Positions 2,130 to 37,900 are shown, counted from the stretch's first letter. The stretch: DNA of 44,476 bases from Atractiella rhizophila (GCA_021432655.1 MU271194.1:143522-187997), one strand, 5' to 3'. Notes: generated from the sequence alone by a model not told the origin. Made by a program: numbers and translations.

Positions 2130-9288
<7,159 letters not shown>

Positions 9289-9746
9289 AAGAGGGATTAC
9301 GGAATGCGCGTGGAGGAAATTGAAAGGAGAAAATTAGACTCTCAACATTGGAAACCCAATGGATAGAGATGGATCAAATAACTGTATCCTTATTCCATTT
9401 AGAGATTACCAGACTCTTATTTTCAAGTATTTCGTCGCCTGCAATGTGCGCTCCTAACCTGGCCGTGTAACAAATGACGCCAGGATAACCCATATGCCTC
9501 CCCCAAGTTTTGTTTTCTCTTCTTTCCCGACTCCCCGGACTCGATTCAGTGCCAGTAACCGTCACATCCACGTCATGTCGCAGGAGTATTCTGTAACACA
9601 GTAGCTGGGTATGCCCACTCTTCCCATTCAACCCTTCCTTGCTTTACTAGAAAGAAGTCACTGCACCGCAAAGCACTTCAAGCTGTGAGCAGACCGTTTC
9701 TACAAGTGAACTCGATGCTAATTTACTTGCTTACAGGTTATATACG

Positions 9747-17922: not shown

Positions 17923-18121
17923 CTTAGGCGACACCGTCCATAGATCCATGTTTAGGCAACACCGTCCATAGATCCATGTTTAGGCAACACCGTCCATAGA
18001 TCCATGTTTAGGCAACACCGTCCATAAGATCCATGTTTAGGCAACACCGTCCATAGATCCATGTTTAGGCAACACCGTCCATAGATCCATGTTTAGGCAA
18101 CACCGTCCATAGATCCATGTT
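17923..18121. repeat. Minisatellite, 7 copies of a 28-bp unit
   Basis: Head-to-tail unit TTTAGGCAACACCGTCCATAGATCCATG. Copy 1 is slightly diverged, copy 4 has one extra A, and there are no spacers. Confidence 0.97.
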
Positions 18122-20322: not shown

Positions 20323-21097
20323 TGCGGGAATACGCACAAGGATTGGTTCAAGTTGTTCTTGATCGTGGCGTCCGGACAGAGCTCCTTGAGCTTCGCCAGG
20401 AAGCAGACCAGGACAGACATATCATCACGCTTTCAAGTTGTTGCTCGCTCTCTCATTCGAGCTACAAAAGTGTTCAAGTCCTCGTCTAAACTGAAAAATG
20501 GACGCAACTGTTTCTTCGCGATCAAAGTCCATCTATCCAGAATGGGTATTTGACCACTCGATCCGTTTTTACAACAACCTTGGTCGTGAGCGCTGCACAG
20601 CTCAATCCGTCTGGAGCCCTCTTTCAGAGTTTGATCTACCGGCGATACAGTCCCGAGTAACGCTTGAGTTCTCCAACTCCTTCTATGAAGGATTACCTGG
20701 ACGTTTCGTCAAAATCCACATGTGCTTCTATGAGGGTCAATGTTTTGCACTCGAAAAGGCTATTGAAGATTCTAAATCTCAGTTAAACGACTATCAGATT
20801 GTGCTCGTGTTACCTGGGAGCGACCCAACTGTTGTCGACTTTGGACCGCAGACGGTATCCCCCCAGGCTAGAGACTGTCAGGTCCATGTCTACCTTACTC
20901 CTTCCGATCGCGATGCAGCTATTGTCTTCGGGTTTTGCGAGAGTTTTCACCTTCAATACCAGGCAAATCTGCCCTCAGGAGTGCCTGCCAGCCGGCACTT
21001 TCTCATTGATTCAATGGCGCGCGATCGAGTTGTGTCCATGAAACTCTTGTCACAACCCGGTGTGGATTGGATGCCATCTTCTGCTCGAGGTTGGTAA
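20323..21097 (+). CDS. Uncharacterised gene or fragment; 5' end unclear; possibly a degenerate F-box-associated gene
   Basis: The frame ...DISSRFQVVARSLIRATKVFKSSSKLKNGRNCFFAIKVHLSRM joins via a GTATTT...CACAG intron to AQSVWSPLSEFDLP...VDWMPSSARGW*. Confidence 0.5.
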
Positions 21098-22663
21098 CTA
21101 TCTGATCTCCAGAATAACTCTGACTAACAAACTGCTACCCTTATGTCACTGTCCATTCAAGGTATGCCCACTAGTTCTACATGGAACATTGTCTGACAAC
21201 TGTCTTCTGCAGGTCATCTTACACTCAGATTCGCCACCATGGTCCCTTCACCTATTTCATATCTCTCTTCAGATTTATTAGCATCAATCTTCATCCACCT
21301 GGCTGTCGATGGCCATCACAACACTCTCGTTCTGCGCGGTGTGTGTAAACTCTGGGATGAACGCATCAGGCGGATTATTGGACCGATCACAAGAGTGCCA
21401 GTGTCCATCTTAGACAATATTCTAGACCTCGCAACGTCCCTGGAGAGGGAGGAAGGGCAACTTTGGGATCCTATCGATGGTCGCAGGAATGTTAAATGGC
21501 TAGGATGGATCATTTTGGTAGTAGATCTGTGTGTAGGCGCTGGAAAGACCGTCTGACATCTCTCATTCGAGCTACAAAAGTGTTCAAGTCCTCGTCTAAA
21601 CTGAAAAATGGACGCAACTGTTTCTTCGCGATCAAAGTCCATCTATCCAGAATGGGTATTTGACCACTCGATCCGTTTTTACAACAACCTTGGTCGTGAG
21701 CGCTGCACAGCTCAATCCGTCTGGAGCCCTCTTTCAGAGTTTGATCTACCGGCGATACAGTCCCGAGTAACGCTTGAGTTCTCCAACTCCTTCTATGAAG
21801 GATTACCTGGATGTTTCGTCAAAATCCACATGTGCTTCTATGAGGGTCAATGTTTTGCACTCGAAAAGGCTATTGAAGATTCTAAATCTCAGTTAAACGA
21901 CTATCAGATTGTGCTCGTGTTACCTGGGAGCGACCCAACTGTGGTCGACTTTGGACCGCAGACCCCCCAGGCTAGAGACTGTCAGGTCCATGTCTACCTT
22001 ACTCCTTCCGATCGCGATGCAGCTATTGTCTTCGGGTTTTGCGAGAGTTTTCACCTTCAATACCAGGCAAATCTGCCCTCAGGAGTGCCTGCCAGCCGGC
22101 ACTTTCTCATTGATTCAATGGCGCGCGATCGAGTTGTGTCCATGAAACTCTTGTCACAACCCGGTGTGGATTGGATGCCATCTTCTGCTCGAGGTTGGTA
22201 ACTATCTGATCTCCAGAATAACTCTGACTAACAAACTGCTACCCTTATGTCACTGTCCATTCAAGGTATGCCCACTAGTTCTACATGGAACATTGTCTGA
22301 CAACTGTCTTCTGCAGGTCATCTTACACTCAGATTCGCCACCATGGTCCCTTCACCTATTTCATATCTCTCTTCAGATTTATTAGCATCAATCTTCATCC
22401 ACCTGGCTGTCGATGGCCATCACAACACTCTCGTTCTGCGCGGTGTGTGTAAACTCTGGGATGAAAGCATCAGGCGAATTATTGGACCGATCACAAGAGT
22501 GCCAGTGTCCATCTTAGACAATATTCTAGACCTCGCAACGTCCCTGGAGAGGGAGGAAGGGCAACTTTGGGATCCTATCGATTTGTCGCAGGAATGTTAA
22601 ATGGCTAGGATGGATCATTTTGGTAGTAGATCTGTGTGTAGGCGCTGGAAAGACCGTCTGACA
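20449..22663 (+). repeat. Near-identical direct tandem duplication (units 20449-21558 and 21559-22663)
   Basis: The units match apart from a few substitutions, a 6-bp deletion in unit 2 (GGTATC, ~21963) and a 1-bp indel (ATCGATGGTCGC vs ATCGATTTGTCGC). Confidence 0.97.
21143..22201 (+). pseudogene. Chimeric double-F-box gene formed at the duplication junction; 1-bp frame disruption at ~21479
   Basis: F-box-like PISYLSSDLLASIF...LRGVCKLW and PITRVPVSILDNIL...SVCRRW run in frame across the junction (KDRLT|SLIRATK) into the C-terminal domain of the upstream gene. Confidence 0.6.
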
Positions 22664-23404
22664 ACCATTCTTCTGGCTACGAGAAGCCGACAAGAAACGA
22701 ATACGTTTCGGCCGCTCGTCCTGTTCTCACCGACATCCCACCACGAATATCGCTCCGCACCCAGTACGATATAAATCTGTAGAAAGTACAAGAGTGTAGA
22801 TCGTACAGTGCGGAGTTTGCACCGGAGAGAAAGCCGTGCCAAAACCCTTTTGGCATATTTGCGCAGTTCCTACAGATCTGGCTTCACCTTCATTCTCGCC
22901 AACTCCGTCATGATCTGTAAGATGACTGCCGTCAAAGAACCACATAATGGCACGCTTCTCCTCGTCATAGCTGCTCTCCCCCAGTCTTTTAAATTTCGCC
23001 TTCGTGATGTCCCCTCAATCTCTCCCTCCAGCCTCTCAGAACACACACTTTCTTATCCAACAAGTGGATTCTTTATGAGCAGGGCTGATGTCTGTACAGT
23101 ATGGAACCATGGGCTCTTGAAGGTTTGTCACTTGCCCTCCTGTTGCAGTTATTTCTAATCTCATCCTCATCTTTAGATTCTCCGTGCCTTGCCTGACATC
23201 AAGAAGAGGGAGGATATCCTCCAGCTGTGGCTTGTTTCGCAGCTTCCTCCCTCCCGTTGGCTGCTTCCTCCTCCTCCTCCGTCTTACCATCCTCTACTAG
23301 TACTCCATTTTCTGCTCACCATGTGTCCCTCCTCCCTCCACGCCAACGTCTTCCTCCATCACCAGGTTCAGCTCCCCTCCTACAGTTCCTCCTACCTTCG
23401 GTAA
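22247..23404 (+). CDS. F-box protein with two tandem F-box-like motifs; multi-exon; 3' end uncertain
   Basis: MSLSIQ|GHLTLRFATMVPSPISYLSSDLLASIF...LRGVCKLWDES...PITRVPVSILDNILDLA...SVCRRWKDRLTTILLAT..., with further exons at 22809-23122 and from ~23177. Confidence 0.6.
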
Positions 23405-23519
23405 CCTGGAGTCTTCCCCCACCCCTCCGATGTCTCCTCTCACTCATGCGGCGTCTATTCTGTTCTTTCGGAGGACAAGAAACCGGTCATCTGCCAGTCG
23501 CCACCTGCAGCGAAAACAC

Positions 23520-23870
23520 CATGAGCTGGAGAAGCAGCTGTCATTGACCTGGATGCGGAGGACACTATGGACATGTTCATTACACACCTAACCACCTTGA
23601 ACTGCTTTTCTCTGCTGTGAGGGGAGACCTGTGATAAAATTCTATGACAAGACTAAGGTGTGTACTCTTTTATACAAGGTAAAGAATTGGGTTGAGTGTT
23701 TATGATAGGGTCACCCTAAGAACCTGTGGCCAGAGCACTGGAATGATTGCTTTATGGGTTGTTTGAAATGGAAGAAGTGGGATCCTGACTATGCCCATCT
23801 ATTTACGAATATACCCTTAGATGTCGACATGAAACGTCTATGCAAAGCAATCACTCCTTACAGAGGTATG
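23520..23870 (+). mobile_element. Decayed fragment, probably of the same fungal Mutator-like transposase family (Cys-containing N-terminal/middle part)
   Basis: CEGRPVIKFYDKTK|GHPKNLWPEHWNDCFMGCLKWKKWDPDYAHLFTNIPLDVDMKRLCKAI resembles the CxGxP...FIGCxxW...HxFxxIPxxVD segment I recall from basidiomycete MULE-like ORFs. Frameshifts lie upstream. Confidence 0.45.
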
Positions 23871-24889
23871 TCTCTTCTTTACTCTTTGGATAGATGATGA
23901 TGTTTGCATAAAGGTACCTCTGCTTACTCCCCTTTTGCTCACAAACAATCCACAGCATCCATCTCCACTCCCAAACCATCCACTTCAGTCGCCTCTGCTC
24001 GATATTCACCTTACCTGTTATCTTGGCCTGCAGATACTGTCTCGGACAGGGCTAAAAAAGGAAAGAAGAGGAGTGAGAATCTGTACGAGCGAAGGGATCA
24101 GCTAAATGATAAGCTGGATGAAATTCTTTAAAAAAAAAACACAGTATGAATAATGTGTAGTTAGAATAATATTAATTGTAAACACCAACACCTGTGTCTA
24201 CAGTTTGCGTAAATAGATATGTCAAGCCTAAGAGAGGATAACCTTCAAAGTTATACAGTGCCCATTTGTTGACATGATCTCCGAACTGAACTACATGGTT
24301 AAATTGACCAACCAAATCCTCCACTCTTCTATGCTTAGAAGGGTTAGAACATGATGCTAGATCCACATAAGGAATACTTTGCGACTGAACTCTTGGTGGC
24401 TCTAGAAAATGAGGCAGCCTGGCATGCTGAATGGATTGCAGTTGGTACGTCTAAACTCTTTTCTTATTCTCTGCCAGTAGCTTATTGCTATTCCTCCCTC
24501 CCATTTTAAGGCACTGATGTGTCTCATTCCAGTACTCTTCCCAGTAGCTCCACAGTAATTGGTACAAGCAACTTAGATGATAGACTTGGAGAAAATGAGG
24601 TCCACAAAGAAGAAGTGTATGGAGCTAGGCAACTCAAAGGGAGTGAGCATATTCTTATCTATTCTGGTGTCAGTATATGGATGGGAAGGGAAAGCACACA
24701 TCAATATTCCCCGAATGTCCACCCCACCTCCCATTCCTTCTTTAAATCAGTTAGGGCAAAAACAAGGACCAGCCATAAACAGTCCAGAGCAGAAATCTAA
24801 TCCTCGAGATCGTCAGCACACCCGTCATGCAGTCGATCTCTCTCACGACATATTTGACCTTTCGCCTCAGATAACGACACATCTCTAGA

Positions 24890-27200
24890 TCACTGATAGC
24901 CCATCTCTTCCTCTCCCTCCTTCAATACTGTCAGAGCGACCACATGTTCCAATTTTCGTAACCCATTGCATTCCTGACCCGCACACACCTTCGCCAGTTG
25001 GAGTCGATGTCTCACAACCCCTGCCGCCCTTCAAAACCAACAATCCAATCCTCCAAGAATTCCTGGAAAAAAAACAACCCCTGGATTTAATCTTCAGCAA
25101 ATTCAAAGTTTCAGAGCGACAGATAAAGTGCCAAACCAAGTTTGGGGCTCTCCGTTTCCTTCTTCAAAAAGGAGTCCAGTTCTTTCCAGGCTCCGCCTCA
25201 TTGTTGAACTAAAAGGTCGCCCTCTTCAGTACTTCCCGACAACAACTGAAGGGCGGATCGACTTTCTCTTTCGAATGGAAGGGCAAAGTTCTGATTGGTC
25301 ACCACAACAAGACGTATGCTGTTAGTTACATGCTTTGTACAGTCTAATCGGACTTCCTTTTGCTAGCTTCAGGGATCTTGGTGAAAAAACTCATCAGGTT
25401 CAACTAGAATGTCTAATCTACCTAACTGGGGCTTCCTGGATTCACATTATGGCTGGGCAGTTTTTAAGACAAAATGTGGCAGCTGGAAAGTTTGCACTCA
25501 CAGGAATCCTCACGAGTTTGATCATATGTGACGATATACCTGCCTCTTGTCAGATTATTCTTCCTGATGGAGAGAGTAGGAAGTTCAGCAGAAGCTGCTG
25601 CCGTGTAGCCAAGATTACTGTTAGGGCTGACACTATGTGCGGTCGCCGACGATGCGTCTGTAGTGGAGATAAACCTAAGTGCATGATATGACATGAAGAC
25701 TAACCTGTAGTGGAGATAAACCTAAGAGAATACTCTAAGGTCACCTCCACTACTCTCTAATCTATATACTCTCAGGTTTAGATGGTACAGGCTTGATCTT
25801 TCTTTTTATTCACATCCTGATCCTAAGTTAACACAACAGAAGTAAGTATGATGCGCATAGAAGAACAGAAAGCCCAAGATCCTAAAAACCAATACATTCA
25901 ACTGGCCGAGCGTTATGGACCAAAAGGAGAAAATGAACTCATTATCTGCTTTCTTAAGCACCAGGCTGACTGTCTCTTACAAGCAAATCGGCTCGCCATC
26001 GACAATACTTATTCTGGGGCTGCCAGTTATATTGAGTGGGAGGCAGCAGTCATGTATCGAGGAAACCATAGGTTATTTCTTGTCTTCCATAAGTATCTGA
26101 GGTAAAAATTATACGGGCATTTATGTTGGGACAGCTTTTCAGCGTGGCGCACAAGATGAGGATGCAATGTTCCGTCTTCTATCATCCTTCTTTAATCTAG
26201 TAAAGGAGGTCACTGGAACTGCGGTCATCTTCAGCTGGATGACAGGACATCAAACAGAAGGAATCAACCTTGTACTAGAGGATTTCAACTCGCCAGGAGG
26301 AGGTGCTCTAGACCATTATTGGCGCACTCTTCTTCTAGACTACGTCGATCCTCCATTTCAGCTTGCCGAAGACAATACATGACCACTTGGACATTTTCAG
26401 ACACTGAAGTACGGTCATGCATTGTGTCACCATCATGGAACAGTGGGAGTTCAGCATTCCATGTATTATTTCCAAAATAATTACCCTCAACGGATAGGAA
26501 TCTTCATCCTTAGGCCAATTCCCTCCAAACCAATCCTGAAGCAATTAAATTTTGAAATAAATGTCTTTCCGATCTTTCAAGATCGCAGCTCACTTCAAGA
26601 ACTCTTTTGCATGAACCATGGATGGAGGGAATCATTGTGCAACCTCAAGCACTTTATACCTATATTACCAAATTTCGGGAAATTACAGATAGGTCGCAAT
26701 GGCAAATGTGGCTGTATATTGCTGAATGCATGCCAGACAATGACTTTCAATGCTAGTTCTCGATTTTTGGTTACAGCCAAAGTCTAATCATTTTCTTTTA
26801 GATTGGTTTCGAAACAAACAAAGCAATCCTTGGTTCTGGGAATCGAGTGTTGCCTGTTTAACACATATTCCTGCCGGGAATGGAAACATGAAAACGGAAC
26901 AACAAACATTGTTGAAACTCTCCATGATCGCAACTACATGGAATTTGGAAAGAACTTGGCATTAATCGCCGCAGTTCAACAGTTTGTTTATTTGCTTATC
27001 TTGTGCAAATCTAATTAATATGTGGTTTACACTTAGACACAAAAGTATCAACAGGATATTCAAGGAACTGACAGCATTTCGGAAAACAAAGTTGTAACAC
27101 GACAAGGACCTAGTGCAGGCAGCCAGACTGCTGCTTTTCGAAACAAGGCAACACGCCATCAAAACCTTGCAGCTCGCTCAGCAAGCAGTAAGAAGGCGCT
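24890..27200 (+). mobile_element. Mutator-like (MULE, DDE) transposase pseudogene with introns, interrupted by an LTR fragment
   Basis: Ordered MULE motifs: LIICF...IDNTY (D, 26001)...IEWE...INLVLEDF (D, 26281)...LCHHH (CxxH, 26425)...DWFRNK..PWF...TTNIVETLH (E, 26914). In-frame TGA at 26380 and several frameshifts. No TIRs found. Confidence 0.7.
25619..25769. mobile_element. Truncated LTR fragment (matches the left ~150 bp of the solo LTR at 30285)
   Basis: TGTTAGGGCTGACACTATGTGCGGTCGCCGA...CTGTAGTGGAGATAAACCTAAG (x2)...CTCCACTACTCTCTAATCTATATA is nearly identical to 30285-30438. Confidence 0.85.
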
Positions 27201-27638
27201 AGATGAAAAGTCGAAGATAGAAGTTGATGTTTTAACCATCATCAAATTCCTTAAACTTCACAGGAAGAATACCGAAAGCACAGTCGAGCTATTGTCAAGA
27301 GGAAATATACAAGAAGGCTCCAAAGAAATGTTGAAGACATGAAAACCAAACTCACCTGGCTAAAGCAGTGCCTGACAAAGTGGAATACCTTCGAAAAGAG
27401 ACTGAAAAATATGTGCCATACAACAACTACAACATACTCTGAACAGAGTATGACTTTATTGTTATATGCATTGCTTCTTTACTTGACGGATGAGAGGCTC
27501 TGGATCATAGAAACTCAGTTGAGATAAATTGTAACCAAATATGCTAACCTTCATCACTACTTTCTTCAGAATTCTGCACGCCATGATGCTACCTGTAATG
27601 TTGATTATAACTGGTATAACTGCCGGTTATTCGTTAGC

Positions 27639-28800
27639 TTAATATAATGATAAGTGTATAGTGCTGAGAAAGAACACACCGATCCAAATACAAGACTGAG
27701 TTTCTTCATGAGAAAACCACACTAACCCATAATGCTCCCCTTCAAACCGGCCAATCCAGTGAACGACAACCGCTCCCTTAAGAATAACAATATCACCCAG
27801 CTTGTACTCCACCACATAAGTGTCTCCTTTCCCAAAATCAAGGTACAATTCCCCTCCCCGAAAACTGCCAATAGGGGTCATAAGGTCCAGTCCATGGGCT
27901 CTGTTCCTAGTATCACAATGTGGCTGCATTGAACCATTGGCAATGATGGCCAGGAAAAGCTGGCAGGACCTTCGTATCGGGAAAAAGCTGTTACTCATTG
28001 GGTAAAGACTTCTCGCAAGATGGACAAGCTGAAGTTGATGGCAGAAGGTCGCAGGTGTATGGACTTGAAAGAGAGTGGTGATGATTTGAGAGAGAGGTGA
28101 AAGGTTTTGAAGGAGGTCATGAACGTGATTCATTCTAAATTAAATATGTTAACTTCAACTTCTGTTAAGCTGAGCTGAAAGGACATACATGATTGCACTA
28201 CTTCTTGAATCAGCAGTAGCACGTGCCTCTTCATGACCGTGAGCAGAAGCATTCCAGATGCCCAGGAAGTAGGAGCCGCAGTGGAGGTTCCTTTGCTTTG
28301 CTTTACTAACATCGTCAGCCATCCAACGAGTATCTCCCTTTTCCGGTGGAGGCTTATGAGGCTTCTGAAGATGAACATACATCTTCACTGCATGCTTCAA
28401 ACTGCTTGAAGCTGCTCTGGCTGGCTTGCGGCCATGAACAATTTCCATTTTATTCTTTAAAACAGTGGCCAGATGGTTTCCATCAGCAGAATAAAACTGA
28501 CACATTCCCTTATTGCTATCAGCTCCCACTCGCTTAGCTCCACTCTCTACACTTCCTTGATCCCTTCTTACTTCATTCACTCTCCTCTCTGCAAGGTTTT
28601 ATAGCTCTTCGAAGGTAGAAGAAACAGTGATCTGGCGACCATGTTTGCGCTCATAAGACAAAATGTCTCGCTCATATGTTGAGCTCTCATCAAACTCCCA
28701 CATCCCTCAAGGATACAACCCCACCAGCCGACATGCTCTTTCCACCCATTCATCTTTCCCTTTTCCATTCTCACTCCAATCCACTACTGAAACAGTGGGC
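27639..28800 (-). pseudogene. TET/JBP-like 2-oxoglutarate/Fe(II) dioxygenase, probably inactivated; 5' end uncertain
   Basis: GSYFLGIWNASAHGHEEARATADSR, then a 54-nt intron (28135-28188), then LAIIANGSMQPHCD (HxD)...GLDLMTPIGSFRGGELYL...YKLGDIVILKGAVVVHWIGRFEGEHYGLVWFSH (distal His; His at the expected 2OG-binding Arg). In-frame TAA at 28599-28601. Confidence 0.8.
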
Positions 28801-29805
28801 TGCTCAGGCCCATCGTGCTAGAAGAATGCACAACGAAACAAATATCGGAAAATGATCCACATAAATGTCAATTCTATTTAAAGCATGCAGAAAGTGTCCT
28901 TGGGCTTCAATGCAACTGCATCTTGGAGGGTAATAGTTCCTCCTTGCTCTAAGCTGAGCCTCGAAAGAGTTCGCTTTCGAGTAAGGAGTTGCTTCTCCAA
29001 GCATGACACAACCTCAAGTTCATGTGTCTACAGCGAGCCTTACCAAAGAGGTAAGTCCCTTTTCGACAATGAAGAGAGGAAGAACTACATGAAGGGAAGG
29101 ACACAATACAGCATGGACCTCAAGAAATAATAAAATGAATGTGAACACAAGTGCAACGGGCAGCCTCCCATGAGCAAAGAAGACTACGCACCATGTTATC
29201 TTCCTTCTCAACCAGCAAGGAGCTGCTCCTTTGCTCTCCTCCCCTGAAACTCAATAAGCACGTCGTATGGAGATTGGTAGATGTCGGGAGGTGCTGGCTT
29301 GAGGACTGAAAGAAGATTGGAAGGTGGGTTGGAGGCAAGGAGGGTGGTACAGGATTGTGGAAAGGAATGCGACGATCCAGAGAGCATGTGGTGTGGAGGG
29401 GCCGAACGAGTGTCGTAACGTCGAAAAAGAGAAAGGAGACAGCGAAAGAGAGAGCAGGAATGTGAGGAGGCTACAGGAGGACGTGTTATATTTGGGTTGT
29501 TGGAGTAATGCCAATATTTGTCCTCTTGTTATTTAGAACGTGAACGGGTGATGTCTTGCGGAATCTAGCCATGCCGCTTTTGCACGCAATGTGACCCAGC
29601 TTTTCCGATGTACGTTACCTACTTTTTCTGTGTCTACAATCTTGTATTTTCTACAGATCTGGTACCTACCCCTCCGCACCTCCTTCCCCAGTTCTGAGCT
29701 TACAAGCTACTTTCACCAAGAAATTTCTCGAGAACATGTACACTTGATCTGCCCATTTCTTCTTCTGTAAATACAGTCAAGTCACCGAATCAGAGTGGGA
29801 GGACA

Positions 29806-31047
29806 ATGCGATTCGACTTCGACTCATCACCCACCTACGAGTTGACTCATGCCCATGATGACATTTTTGTTCTTGTCTGTAAATTAGGGCCTGACGGTGG
29901 TGATTATGTTCATCAAGTCGTGGTTCTCAAGTTTCATCCTTGTGGCTGGTTGAGAAGAACTCTGCATCTTTATGTGGATAGTAAAGGATGGGACTACTTT
30001 AGACTTTGTTTGAAAGGCTTCGAGGGAATGGTTAGATTTGATCTGACTGAAACGGGTTGGACACACCATTTCGCACAACTATCTACTTCATCGACTTCTC
30101 TCAACCTTACTACCTTACTTTTGCCGTTGCATCTCCTCTCTCCATCTTCCAATGCTTACCTCCGGAGGTTCTGGAAATCATTTATCAATTTCTGCATGAT
30201 TTCCACATATATAAAATGAGAAAATGAGAATACTGACCAGGAGAATTAAACAGAAATTCTGAAATCAAATGCGCTCCTGGTGTGTGTTAGGGCTAACACT
30301 ATGTGCGGTCGCCGATAGGCGATGCGTCTGTAGTGGAGATAAACCTAAGAGCATGATATGACATGAAGACTAACCTGTAGTGGAGATAAACCTAAGGGAA
30401 TACTCTAAGGTCACCTCCACTACTCTCTGATCTATATATACAAGTGGAATAACACTGCCACAGAGCGTAGAGGAGAGCAGATGAAACATGTAAGAGAACT
30501 AAAAAGGAAGTGACAGTGGGATTACGCGGAGTTAATAAGAGGAGGATAGGCACAATTGGGCTAAGTGGTGATGTAGGTGCAAATGGGCGAACGGGCGAAC
30601 GGGCAGTGCAAATCGGCGACGGGAGAAGCAGTGGCGACGGGCGCCGATTTGCAGGGAACGCAAATGGGCGATAGGAGACGCAATCCGGCGAACGGGCGCC
30701 GATTTGCGTAAGATGCAAACCTGACAGTGTGCAGGCGATGGACTGCTGGTATTCTACGTAGCAGACTAAAGGATCCTGATCCTGAACACAGCTACCTGAA
30801 ACTGCGAGAAATGGAAGAGTGTCCTGGCTATCGCCCAAATTGGATAGACCTTTCTTACAAGAAAATAGACTTCAACCTAGGTCTTGATTTGGTAACTGTG
30901 GTCAGTGTCTTAGAAAGACACCAATCCTTCTCCCATCTGCATTACCTCTGTTTATGGCATCCCTCGTCAAGTCGAGACCAATTACACTTGCTGCATTTTG
31001 CAAACTTGAACTGCCTCGAGCGTGTTACTTTTGATGGGTGGGAATAG
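29806..31047 (+). pseudogene. F-box gene remnant disrupted by a solo LTR and frameshifts
   Basis: IFQCLPPEVLEIIYQFLH (~30145-30200)...EILKSNALLVC|RRWTAGILRSRL is restored when the LTR and one TSD copy are removed. LRR-like FSHLHYLCLW...LNCLERVTF follows. Confidence 0.7.
30285..30726. mobile_element. Solo LTR (442 bp) with 5-bp target-site duplication GTGTG
   Basis: Starts TGTTAGG and ends CCTGACA (TG...CA, 7-bp inverted termini with 1 mismatch). GTGTG flanks both sides (30280-30284 and 30727-30731). A partial second copy is at 25619. Confidence 0.92.
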
Positions 31048-34900: not shown

Positions 34901-37900
34901 GGGAGACTTCGTCACTTGTTTTGCTCGAGCCTCCCCAGAGAAGACCCTGGCCAGATTCTTGCCTCTATGCATGAGGAAGATCAAGGAAGAGCTGGAACAT
35001 GTAAGTCTCATCTTGCGCCACCTAGCAATCAGTTAAAGAACGCATAGGGTGCTGCTTCCACAAGAACGACTTCACCCAACTCTGTGCTCGATTCCGATGT
35101 CACACTTTCCTACTACTCGGGTCTAATGGTCGGATCTATTCATCATGGCGGAGTGCACGTAGGTCCTGCACACATTGGAAAGGTCATCACATTGATCCAC
35201 AGGGATAGATGCTTAAATACAAGCAAGACATTTTCAACCTTCTGAGACTCACCGTGGAGAAGTCCATGACGGAGAGGGCCTTTTCTTACAACGGACGGTT
35301 CATTTCAAATCTCATAATCGCTTGGACTCATATTTGGCCACACGATTATCGTTTCGTCAACAGTGAAGAATGGAATTCGTCACGTAGGTCTTTCTTCTTT
35401 GTGGGAGACGCAAGCTAAATTGACGTGGAAGATTTTGCAAAGAAGCATCATGAAATGTGGGGGAAGACATATAAAAGTGCAGGACGTCAAGGTGCGTGAC
35501 TGTATCGTTGCTCGGTTTGTTGAATAACCCTCAGTTCGCAGATCGAGTGGCACGTCGCCAGTCAAGACGAGATCAATGCTGTCATCGATTTGTTCAAAAC
35601 CATCATTGAACCAGCCCTGAAGAACCTGGAAGACTTGCTACGCAGGGAAAACAGTCTCGCTAAAGATGACTTCAAGGNNNNNNNNNNNNNNNNNNNNCTC
35701 GCTAAAGATGACTTCAAGGTCTTCGCTAACGATTTCTGTCGATATTTGACCATTGTGAAGAATGCTTTCCAAGCGTCTAGTGACCTGGTAGATTTGGGAC
35801 TCCCAAAGAAACTTGGGAAAGATGTAACAGACATGTGGTTAGTCCTACTGCTGGGCATTTACCCTTCTGATGGCGAATTGAACAGGTTGCAAGAACCAGA
35901 GTTCGTGGAACGCGTCCCAGCTTTTGCGTGCGGAATTAACATCACTGATCCTTCCGATCCGAGACACACATATATGCTCAAGCTACGAGAACGATATGGC
36001 GAGACGTTGCACAATGCTATAGATGCCTTCAAATCTCACGGCGTTGAGGATTCCATTGACTGTGTTCGACTTCTTATTTCCTCCATCAAATCGATCCTTA
36101 TCGACTATCCTTGCGATCGGAGCACGTATGGGCACATGCAACGTTATTTCGACTTCACGAAGAACTTGTGCAAGAATTGGAAGGGGCAGCAACTCTACCC
36201 AAGGGCCGTTTGGAGTGCGCTCTTTCTTACTACATACGCAACCACCTGAAGCTATTATAGTCCGCCGAGCACTTTACTACCACTCAGCAAGGCAACGTAT
36301 CTATTCCCTGGCGCGTCCTCGCTCGCAGCTTGAAGACCAGCTCATCTTGGATCTCGGGGAACTGTCTCTCAGTCCGTACCTGAAGGTTCGGCTGTCAAGC
36401 CAGCGCGCTTTAGATTCGGTCACTATTTATTACGATGGCTCTCGAGCACTCCTTTATGACACATTGTTTGACGCCTTGAAGCCGGGGAATGATCACGACC
36501 GAATGAAAGGCGCTTTATATGTCCTTGGATCGAAGCTGTTCTGCAATTTAGGTATGTCAACATTGCATAAAATGTTAGCGGGAATATGCTAATCCCCAGA
36601 TCTCAGGCATAGTTGATTGGCGTTTCGCCCCAAAATACATCATGTCGCTTCTCGGATGTCATCATCAGGAACGCCCAAGCGTCCAAAGTCTCGCGAAGGG
36701 GATCATCCACGATTTTATTATTCGGTTGGGCGAACCATCCTCGTTGAGAAGCTCTGTCTCCAGCTCAGGAGTACAGACTGCTGCAAACGAACTTGAGAAG
36801 CATAGTCGATATGTGGAGGACAAGGGGTTAATTGAACGAATTAGTGGCACAAGGGCAAAGCGCGTTGAGCACAGGGATCAAGCATATCTTGACTTGGTAG
36901 CTTCTGATCATCTCAAACCTGACACCTGTTGATTCTGCTGATAGATCCCAGAATTGTTAAAATTTGCACAAGAGCCTGGACGACACTGGCGGTACCGACT
37001 TGCTGCCATCCGCTTCATTCGAACATTGATTCGGAGGGATATGGTTTCGTGCCTTTCTCTTCAATTGCCCACCTCTTTGACCAATCCCCATAGCCCTTGA
37101 ATCCTGGCACTGCTGCGTTCATGGTAAACCAGATGGTCTCTGACATCCCGACGATACGCGCTCATTCCCTTGCGGCGTGAGTTCTGGCTCCTTACTGTTC
37201 TTCAAATTATACTCATCAGTGCGGGATAAGTGTTACGAAGATGCTGCACTTCCTGAAGCTTCGCTCATGTGAATTCCTTCTATTCGTATTCGATGCGAAG
37301 TGCCTGACGGAGATACAGATGCAAGCGGTTCCAGTGAACTGTTACTCCTGCAGAAGACACGAAATCCTCTCAAGCGACGCGTTCATCTCGATGTACCTGT
37401 CCCCGACGATTTCACGGACAAGTTCATTAGAAGCTTGAAAGAACCCATTACAAGTGGATCGAAGGAAGAGACGTGCGTGATCCCCCATAATTAGTGCCGT
37501 TGTTGACTTTGCGTGTAGCCACTTAATGGACAAGACCGTTATTGGCTGGTTGGTATGGGGGAGTGAAGTCGAATTCTATGCTGCACCACCAGACGGTGCT
37601 CCTCTCCCCACATGGGACAGCACGTCACAAGCTGCAACAGAAGAGCTTAGGAAAGTCATCCACAGCCAGAAGTGGTGGGATGATTTCTCCGCCATCCTTG
37701 CGCAGGAGCATACCCGCGATTACTTAGGGTATTTTACGTTAGATTCTCAAACATACGTTGATGAACTCAATTAGGAACGACAACGCGACTGTCATCAAGT
37801 CAATGTAAGTATTACAAGTACGTTCGCTTTTGCTCATGTTGCCTTCAGATTCCAAATCTTTCAAGATGCTCCATTGGAGTTCCTCTTCCCTGTTCTGGAG

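Follow-up and report, generated by a model that had tools for sequence, protein, structure and literature searches.

Does a Mutator-like transposon of Atractiella rhizophila carry a TET/JBP dioxygenase gene as cargo? The question arises from a stretch of 44,476 nucleotides of this basidiomycete (GCA_021432655.1, MU271194.1:143522-187997; the window in what follows, with positions counted from its first letter), in which the remnant of a transposase gene on the plus strand converges on a TET/JBP gene on the minus strand. The classical partners of basidiomycete TET/JBP genes are transposons of the KDZ (Kyakuja/Dileera/Zisupton) group, whereas an original prediction, covering positions 23520-28800, proposed that a Mutator-class element carries its own TET-like enzyme here. 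Both genes do lie within those limits, but the element that encloses them is larger, a single unit of 6,910 bp (22762-29671). We consider the locus to be probably, though by no means with certainty, a copy of a TET-carrying Mutator-like transposon, and we extend the same degree of confidence to a more specific description, in which the window copy, ageing and non-autonomous, represents a low-copy, cut-and-paste element of about 6.9 kb whose TET cargo lies antisense to the transposase.

Ends, insertion site and linkage of the two genes

The element is delimited by terminal inverted repeats of 39 nt, located at 22762-22800 (plus strand) and at 29633-29671 (minus strand, with a reverse complement that begins GGGTAGGTACCAG ATCTGTAGAAAATACAAGATTGTAGA). 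Their well-kept core is identical at 24 of 26 nt (22775-22800 versus 29633-29658). No second inverted pair of at least 36 bits was found at spacings of 0.5-10 kb in the 44-kb window, and a pair of such strength appeared in none of 20 shuffles. Immediately outside the element, a direct repeat, CTCCGCACC, is present at 22753-22761 and 29672-29680 (9/9 nt identical), and both of its copies lie exactly 13 nt beyond the inverted-repeat core, hence symmetrically. We estimate a probability of about 1e-4 that an exact 9-mer would recur by chance at some symmetric offset of 0-30 nt. The window copy thus displays both the inverted ends and a target-site duplication within the range of 9-11 bp that the original prediction had led one to look for. 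The terminal ends also carry the motif ATCTGTAG, of which a subterminal copy in inverted orientation is found at 22867-22881 (minus strand, CCAGATCTGTAGGAA); the corresponding pattern, AGATCTGTAGRAA, occurs 3 times in the window versus 0.15 expected.

Removal of the element together with one duplicate (6,919 nt) renders an open reading frame (ORF) at 22601-22771 continuous, and in frame, with 29681-29747. The transposon apparently inserted within this host reading frame, and the uninterrupted target site would read CGCTCCGCACC TCCTTCC. The genes around the element are ordinary ones (ABC transporter, SIS, PSME4/Blm10 and GT49), which argues that its surroundings are not a transposon graveyard.

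Evidence that the two genes belong together was obtained from the contigs of two DNA runs (X1 and X2) of one sample of the same organism, compared at a likeness of at least 80%, with the reservation that contig depth is not equivalent to copy number. Beside near-identical contigs, these contain a second, diverged copy that is about 15-18% different from the window copy, with 176 differences in 987 nt over 25836-26822 in the transposase, and 104 differences over 27686-28374 in TET, the latter on a contig of 1,824 nt and depth 627 in X2. The joints from 27413 to 27686 and from 26872 to 27043 agree in depth with this TET contig, as do indels at 27063, 27066 and 27325, which indicates that one diverged contig spans TET and continues into the C-terminal exons of the transposase. 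Further joints of the diverged copy lie in its 5' part (23255 to 23362, 23507 to 23733, 23831 to 23970, 24129 to 24312, 24446 to 24740, 25013 to 25080, and 25282 to 25364) and at its right (29127 to 29359 and 29426 to 29602), the diverged blocks covering 23.0-25.6 kb and 29.1-29.7 kb. A joint from 22831 to 23018, with 70 letters on its shorter side, was found in both runs and places the start of similarity at about 22762, i.e. at the predicted left terminus. The shared boundary of inverted repeat and duplication, together with the joining of the genes in the second copy, shows that transposase and TET are linked and not chance neighbours. The proposal that one element carries both genes is thereby supported by two copies, and the opposite outcome envisaged for it, unlinked genes in a graveyard of transposable elements, was not encountered, as the second copy joins both and host genes lie around the element.

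The two genes and their methylation history

The core of the TET/JBP gene occupies 27639-28448 on the minus strand. The frame from 28598 to 27639 is broken by three stops alone, at 28139-28155, and all three fall within a canonical 54-nt intron (28188-28135, with ends GTATGT...TTTAG) that separates exon 1 (28448-28189) from exon 2 (28134-27680), beyond which the frame reads through to a stop at 27641-27639. Compared with the annotated A. rhizophila protein BT69DRAFT_1292545 (P0004, 282 amino acids), the exons agree at 238 of 239 aligned residues, the sole mismatch being the intron-split codon. The TET reading frame is whole, not decayed. A 2-oxoglutarate- and Fe(II)-dependent dioxygenase with HxD...H...(R>H)xxxVxF motifs had been correctly recognised here, but the accompanying statement that both genes are similarly decayed does not hold, the transposase alone being broken. 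The two genes converge, as noted before, within about 0.5 kb, with a gap of about 190 nt between 27449 and 27639-27641. The last three small exons of P0004 (27235-27585, minus strand) run antisense through the 3' remnant of the transposase, and the TET core could simply end at the stop at 27641-27639, before these exons. Stops number 0 in about 240 TET codons versus 3 in about 470 transposase codons, which is not significant (P of about 0.2, our estimate), and divergence from the second copy, at 15% for TET versus 18% for the transposase, is too close for an argument from selection.

On sequence likeness, the minus-strand protein appears to be a divergent TET/JBP dioxygenase. A precomputed domain table assigns PF12851 to P0004, and two chains of the Coprinopsis cinerea enzyme CcTet (7vpn and 8jkk) were matched at E 0.009 over residues 314-394, in the jelly-roll core. 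In the ESM Atlas, Tet_JBP clusters from Basidiomycota scored 0.96 with 206 shared features and template-modelling (TM) scores of 0.67-0.74, the cluster at TM 0.67 reaching the naming bar of the Atlas. The iron triad is present as HCD (27920-27912) and the distal His of VVHW (27761-27759), which align with His326/Asp328 and His376 of CcTet, respectively, and the equivalent of CcTet Asp337 (D337) is kept (GLDL). A word-index search with TET returned P0004 alone (1 of 531 candidates) and no close paralogue.

The catalytic region of the transposase, a pseudogene and a candidate Mutator-like DDE enzyme, lies at 25839-27449 on the plus strand. It was traced by tblastn with a more intact Atractiella relative, BT69DRAFT_1306583 (P0003), an N-terminally partial protein of 570 amino acids on a contig of 2,131 nt. 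The window remnant (P0001) is matched by P0003 in 6 exon-like pieces with 68-92% identity, residues 1-80 of P0003 having no match anywhere in the window. In-exon stops are located at 26380-26382, 26511-26513 and 26553-26555, where P0003 has W, Y and W, respectively, and frameshifts at 26872/26881 and at about 27325. With its frame broken by these 3 stops and shifted at 2 places, and with the N-terminal part missing, the transposase of the window copy is dead. Nested in its gene, and splitting it, is also a piece of a short repeat of very high copy number (25619-25768, 94.8% identical to 30285-30438). The word depth of the bin at 25614-26014 is 43,709 in X1 and 106,566 in X2, while other bins of the element have about 150-1,000. 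The annotated model BT69DRAFT_1292544 (P0005; 24351-26379, plus strand) is a patchwork of several frames over this pseudogene. The motifs on which the plus-strand remnant had been recognised, D(NTY), D, CxxH and TTNxxExxH, are all present, as AIDNTY, LVLEDF, C-H-H-H (CHHH) and TTNIVETLH, and their counterparts in P0003 are D135/136, D212, C260xxH263, W378 and E389, with roles assigned by motif only.

The 5' part of the element (23018-25618, plus strand) consists of blocks shared with the second copy and of unalignable stretches between them; it contains no readable long ORF in the window copy and no Pfam family, and may hold the N-terminal exons of the transposase. The region from upstream of TET to the right repeat (28449-29632) is also present in the diverged copy and features no recognisable gene and no Pfam family.

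Word-index protein searches with P0001 returned P0003 alone (1 of 1,177 candidates), and those with P0003 returned only P0003 itself and P0005 (2 of 8,000). Among 1.84 billion representatives searched with HMMER, the same two proteins, both from Atractiella, were found at E<=0.001, the sensitivity of this search being limited by a query that consisted of the decayed, X-containing window copy. No match to P0003 was obtained by tblastn in plasmids, and metagenome scans with P0003 and with P0004 yielded no confirmed relative.

The base composition of the element suggests a history of methylation. The ratio of observed to expected CpG is 0.50 in the element and 0.41 in TET, versus 0.80-0.86 in the flanking genes, TpG is raised, and the GC content is 0.44 in the element versus 0.48 in the flanks. 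This CpG depletion is confined to the element and marks it as a past target of cytosine methylation and ensuing deamination. CpG-directed hypermutation is known from Pucciniomycotina (PMC12730594, section 4.2; this and the other articles cited by PMC number are drawn on for part of their contents). One-directional repeat-induced point mutation of the classical type between copies is not indicated, the transitions being balanced (in X1, 122 A>G, 129 C>T, 104 G>A and 136 T>C).

The following mode of action may be proposed for the element. An intact, multi-exon DDE transposase would bind the ends containing ATCTGTAG, with D135/136, D212 and E389 as candidate catalytic residues, complemented by C260xxH263 and W378 (P0003 numbering), and would mobilise the element by cut-and-paste with a 9-bp staggered cut of the target, as in Mutator elements. 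Oxidation of the element's 5-methylcytosine by the TET enzyme could then relieve silencing by methylation or C-to-T hypermutation, a role that has been proposed for TET transposons of other superfamilies.

Assignment of the transposase and alternative readings

Motifs, ESM Atlas neighbours and duplication length point to a Mutator-like transposase. The order D..D..CxxH..W..TTNxxE is found in the window copy and in P0003, and the TTNxxE form of the E motif is one that we take to be typical of IS256/Mutator. By ESM Atlas features, whose scores serve as leads only, clusters of the Mutator-like element (MULE) family PF10551 scored 0.87-0.92, with PF10551 on 65% of the members of the top cluster (0.92), and all ten best named matches were of one family or clan. 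By ESM Atlas structure, 8 of 10 rows were MULE/FAR1/ZSWIM and 1 more was of SWIM type without a listed family (TM by query 0.40-0.54), with two rows reaching the naming bar (PF00872 and PF21056). The best structural neighbour is an unnamed Basidiomycota cluster (907 amino acids, 182 members, TM 0.60). AlphaFold2 models made without alignment had a predicted local distance difference test (pLDDT) score of 37.0 for P0003 and 37.4 for P0004, too low for fold comparison.

The structure of the ends is also consistent with this assignment. The 9-bp duplication, which was seen at one copy only, falls in the range of 8-11 bp reported for MULEs, in which 9 bp is the most frequent length (PMC6446971); another source gives 8-10 bp for MULEs and 8 bp for hAT elements (PMC5499845). 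The 39-nt ends are terminal inverted repeats of the kind by which MULEs are recognised, those of fungal MULEs measuring 22-99 bp (PMC6446971, Table 1), and antisense second ORFs are frequent in MULEs (PMC6446971). The elements (C/D)(2)H, found 15-45 amino acids past the second D, and W before E are common to MULEs and hAT (PMC5499845). Neither P0001 nor P0003 matched KDZ (transposase domain or CxC cysteine clusters) or Plavaka in Pfam, and no Pfam match to KDZ, hAT, MULE or any other transposase family came from 221 additional translated pieces, taken from the window and the element. The missing KDZ profile match, together with a 9-bp duplication and inverted ends as opposed to duplications of 7-8 bp, argues that the transposase is not KDZ. 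The original preference for MULE over KDZ can accordingly be retained as regards KDZ profiles, duplication length and Mutator-like motifs, but it did not extend to a match with PF10551 or PF00872.

Several observations weigh against a TET-carrying Mutator-like transposon. In a Pfam hmmscan at E<=10, P0001 matched nothing and P0003 gave a chance match only, with neither PF10551 nor PF00872, so that formal MULE membership is not established; P0003 also had 0 matches at E<=10 in the PDB by phmmer, and only chance-level matches in NCBIfam. No zinc-finger DNA-binding domain (SWIM, CCHC, FLYWCH or WRKY/FAR1) was detected in P0003, which is N-terminally partial, or in the window pieces, where the 5' part is unreadable. 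The spacing of 177 amino acids between D212 and E389 of P0003 is long for MULEs, and C260 lies 48 amino acids past D212, just beyond the published 15-45. In the ESM Atlas, a score of 0.9 is attained by 4-10% of shuffled proteins, a third of which also obtain ten named matches in one family, and the 162 features shared with the top MULE cluster fall short of the 170 that true family members typically share. Regarding the element as a unit, just 5 of the 13 outer nt of the terminal repeats match, and only one extra copy was seen, with its right limit unread, which leaves some room for segmental duplication of a unit with inverted ends.

The same holds for two features of TET. The predicted match to the Pfam Tet_JBP profile (PF12851) was obtained, at E 1.1e-5 to 4.1e-5 and at E 1.7e-5 for the gene core, but its 23.3-25.2 bits lie under the gathering score of 34.9 bits. 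In one pairwise alignment, GEHYGLVWF pairs with GERYCMAHF of CcTet, which places a His codon (CAT, 27734-27732) at the position of Arg385, an Arg being found 5 residues upstream (IGRFEGEH). In CcTet, Arg385 is highly conserved and forms a salt bridge to 2-oxoglutarate, and the R385A variant is inactive (PMC11040006). With His in place of this essential residue, activity of the TET enzyme of the window copy is doubtful. The codon CAT is one CpG transition away from CGT, and private decay is therefore the simplest reading of the His.

It is conceivable, although unlikely, that the locus is a TET-carrying DNA transposon with a transposase not of Mutator proper but of hAT, or of some undescribed superfamily close to hAT, MULE and P. 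The missing MULE match in Pfam would fit such an assignment, as would the status of the transposase as a sequence orphan (2 Atractiella proteins alone at E<=0.001 in 1.84 billion representatives) and a best structural neighbour without a name (TM 0.60). Moreover, (C/D)(2)H and W before E occur in hAT as well as in MULEs (PMC5499845), and TET-carrying hAT7 elements exist in rusts (PMC12730594). However, the duplication is of 9 bp, as opposed to 8 bp in hAT and 7 bp in hAT7, no hAT dimerisation domain or other hAT family was matched in Pfam, the named ESM Atlas neighbours are all MULE/FAR1/ZSWIM, and an E motif of the form TTNxxE fits IS256/Mutator. A reading without any cargo relation, in which a host TET gene stands beside a dead transposase, a single segmental duplication copied both and the repeats are not scars of transposition, appears improbable to us. 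It draws on the two documented copies, on an intact TET that is annotated as a normal gene next to a dead transposase, on the absence of a close TET paralogue in the word-based protein search (1 of 531 candidates), and on the poor match of the outer repeat ends. Yet it must contend with an inverted repeat that is unique in the window and significant, a 9-bp repeat at exactly symmetric offsets, a similarity to the second copy that starts at the predicted left end, a host ORF that is in frame again once the element is removed, and a TET gene that is CpG-depleted like the element (0.41 versus 0.80-0.86 in the flanks).

That the locus represents an ordinary KDZ TET transposon decayed past recognition is hardly credible: the more intact P0003 (570 amino acids) also lacks a KDZ match in Pfam at E<=10, the ESM Atlas neighbours are of MULE type, and the E motif reads TTNxxE where KDZ transposases have GExxExxW. 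Dileera is indeed a TET-carrying KDZ lineage of Pucciniales, but Dileera and Zisupton have duplications of 8 bp, and Kyakuja of 7 bp without inverted ends, as opposed to the 9 bp and inverted ends found here (PMC12730594).

Starting from the preferred reading of a TET-carrying Mutator-like transposon, it is tempting to speculate further that an orphan Mutator-like lineage captured TET/JBP independently in a fourth fungal class, that the cargo outlived the transposase by being useful to the host or to sister copies, and that the Arg-to-His exchange represents a switch of co-substrate or chemistry as in CMD1, although we hold this extended scenario to be quite improbable. CMD1 is a TET relative that uses vitamin C.

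Sequence context and relation to known TET/JBP carriers

Other repeats were noted in the window. The short repeat at 30285-30726, of which a fragment is found at 25619-25768, is present in very high copy, with a word depth of 30,000-113,000 in the bins at 30025-30826 versus a few hundred elsewhere. Many different flanks start at 30285 and at 30726, and GC-rich internal sub-repeats (GCAAATGGGCGA-like) are present; this repeat could be a miniature inverted-repeat transposable element (MITE) or an element resembling a short interspersed nuclear element (SINE). A head-to-tail duplication of 1.1 kb (20449-21558 and 21559-22663, 98.9% identity) stops about 100 nt short of the transposon; each of its units comprises an ORF of about 200 amino acids that matches no Pfam family, and then an F-box-like stretch (22301-22597). 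Contig cover in the bin at 21604-22004 is zero in both runs, and in the bin at 22005-22405 it is zero in X2 and 36.5 in X1; the missing cover at 21604-22004 makes an assembly artefact possible for this duplication. Farther away, a direct repeat (1-1738 versus 7531-9292, 85.8% identity) flanks or overlaps an ABC-transporter region (ABC_membrane and ABC_tran fragments, 3.2-8.5 kb) and could reflect ABC transporter paralogues in tandem or an end that was duplicated. A small tandem array that repeats about every 84 nt (17924-18121, 97-98% identical) and an assembly gap of 20 N inside the PSME4/Blm10-like gene region (35678-35697) were also identified.

TET/JBP genes are carried by Dileera, hAT7, IS3EU, PHISTA/Harbinger, EnSpm, ESTA, Helitron, Kyakuja, Zisupton and Plavaka elements (Kojima 2025, PMC12730594). 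In the parts of that source drawn on, the hosts of TET-carrying transposons are Pucciniomycetes, Agaricomycetes and Pezizomycetes, and the duplications, where given, are of 8, 7, 6, TA, 3, TA and 7 bp. The Atractiella element resembles these fungal DNA transposons in its cut-and-paste mode and in having a transposase and a separate intron-bearing TET/JBP gene inside its ends; its host is likewise a basidiomycete of the Pucciniomycotina, and its TET has HxD, not the PE-type HxE. Unlike it, none of those described in these parts is Mutator-like, has a 9-bp duplication or comes from Atractiellomycetes, and the Atractiella element is further distinguished by its low copy number and by the His at the position of CcTet Arg385. 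With MULEs that have a second gene (Mutyl with antisense MutB, VANDAL, and Phytophthora MuDR with SET) it shares inverted ends, a 9-bp duplication, the order D..D..(C)xxH..W..E, and an antisense second ORF that may act on chromatin or epigenetic marks (PMC6446971, PMC12730594). It differs from them in a transposase with long D-to-E spacing and without Pfam MULE/SWIM/FAR1 match or zinc finger, and in its cargo, a TET/JBP dioxygenase, none being recorded for MULEs among the matches listed. The best solved relative of the Atractiella TET is CcTet (PDB 7vpn, 7w5p and 8jkk), from which it retains equivalents of His326/Asp328/His376 and Asp337. Nevertheless, similarity is weak, the Atractiella core comprises about 240 amino acids versus 415-430 in CcTet, and Arg385 is replaced by His, Arg321 by Gly, Thr323 by Met, and Gly331 by Asn.

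The main text of PMC12730594 mentions neither Mutator or MULE elements nor Atractiella and its relatives, and it names MuDR only in the Introduction, with respect to VANDAL and SET; one of its supplements has no mention of MuDR, Mutator or Atractiella. Among the matches listed in a literature search (titles and beginnings of abstracts) there was no Mutator-like TET carrier, and a search for transposable elements of Atractiella gave nothing on a TET-carrying Mutator-like element among the matches listed. The view that this pairing had not been described can thus be maintained for the Mutator-like carrier within these sources, but not for TET cargo as such, which is known in many superfamilies. 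Since TET cargo has been published for many transposon families, the element adds a carrier, not a principle; novelty would lie in a carrier of Mutator-like type, in a duplication of 9 bp and in the fungal class.

That unrelated fungal transposons have captured TET/JBP genes repeatedly is interpreted as a counter-defence to silencing by methylation. To our knowledge, TET/JBP enzymes are the only ones known to remove the methyl mark from 5-methylcytosine actively, and the Mutator superfamily is known for picking up host genes. The locus allows two public gene models to be corrected, since P0005 is a chimera that covers a pseudogene and the 3' end of P0004 extends into the transposase remnant on the opposite strand. 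Its TET is also a natural variant in which His takes the place of Arg at the cofactor anchor. A Mutator-like carrier, if true, would add one more transposase superfamily, and a fungal class beyond the three published lineages, and would strengthen the case for recurrent, independent capture of TET by fungal transposons.

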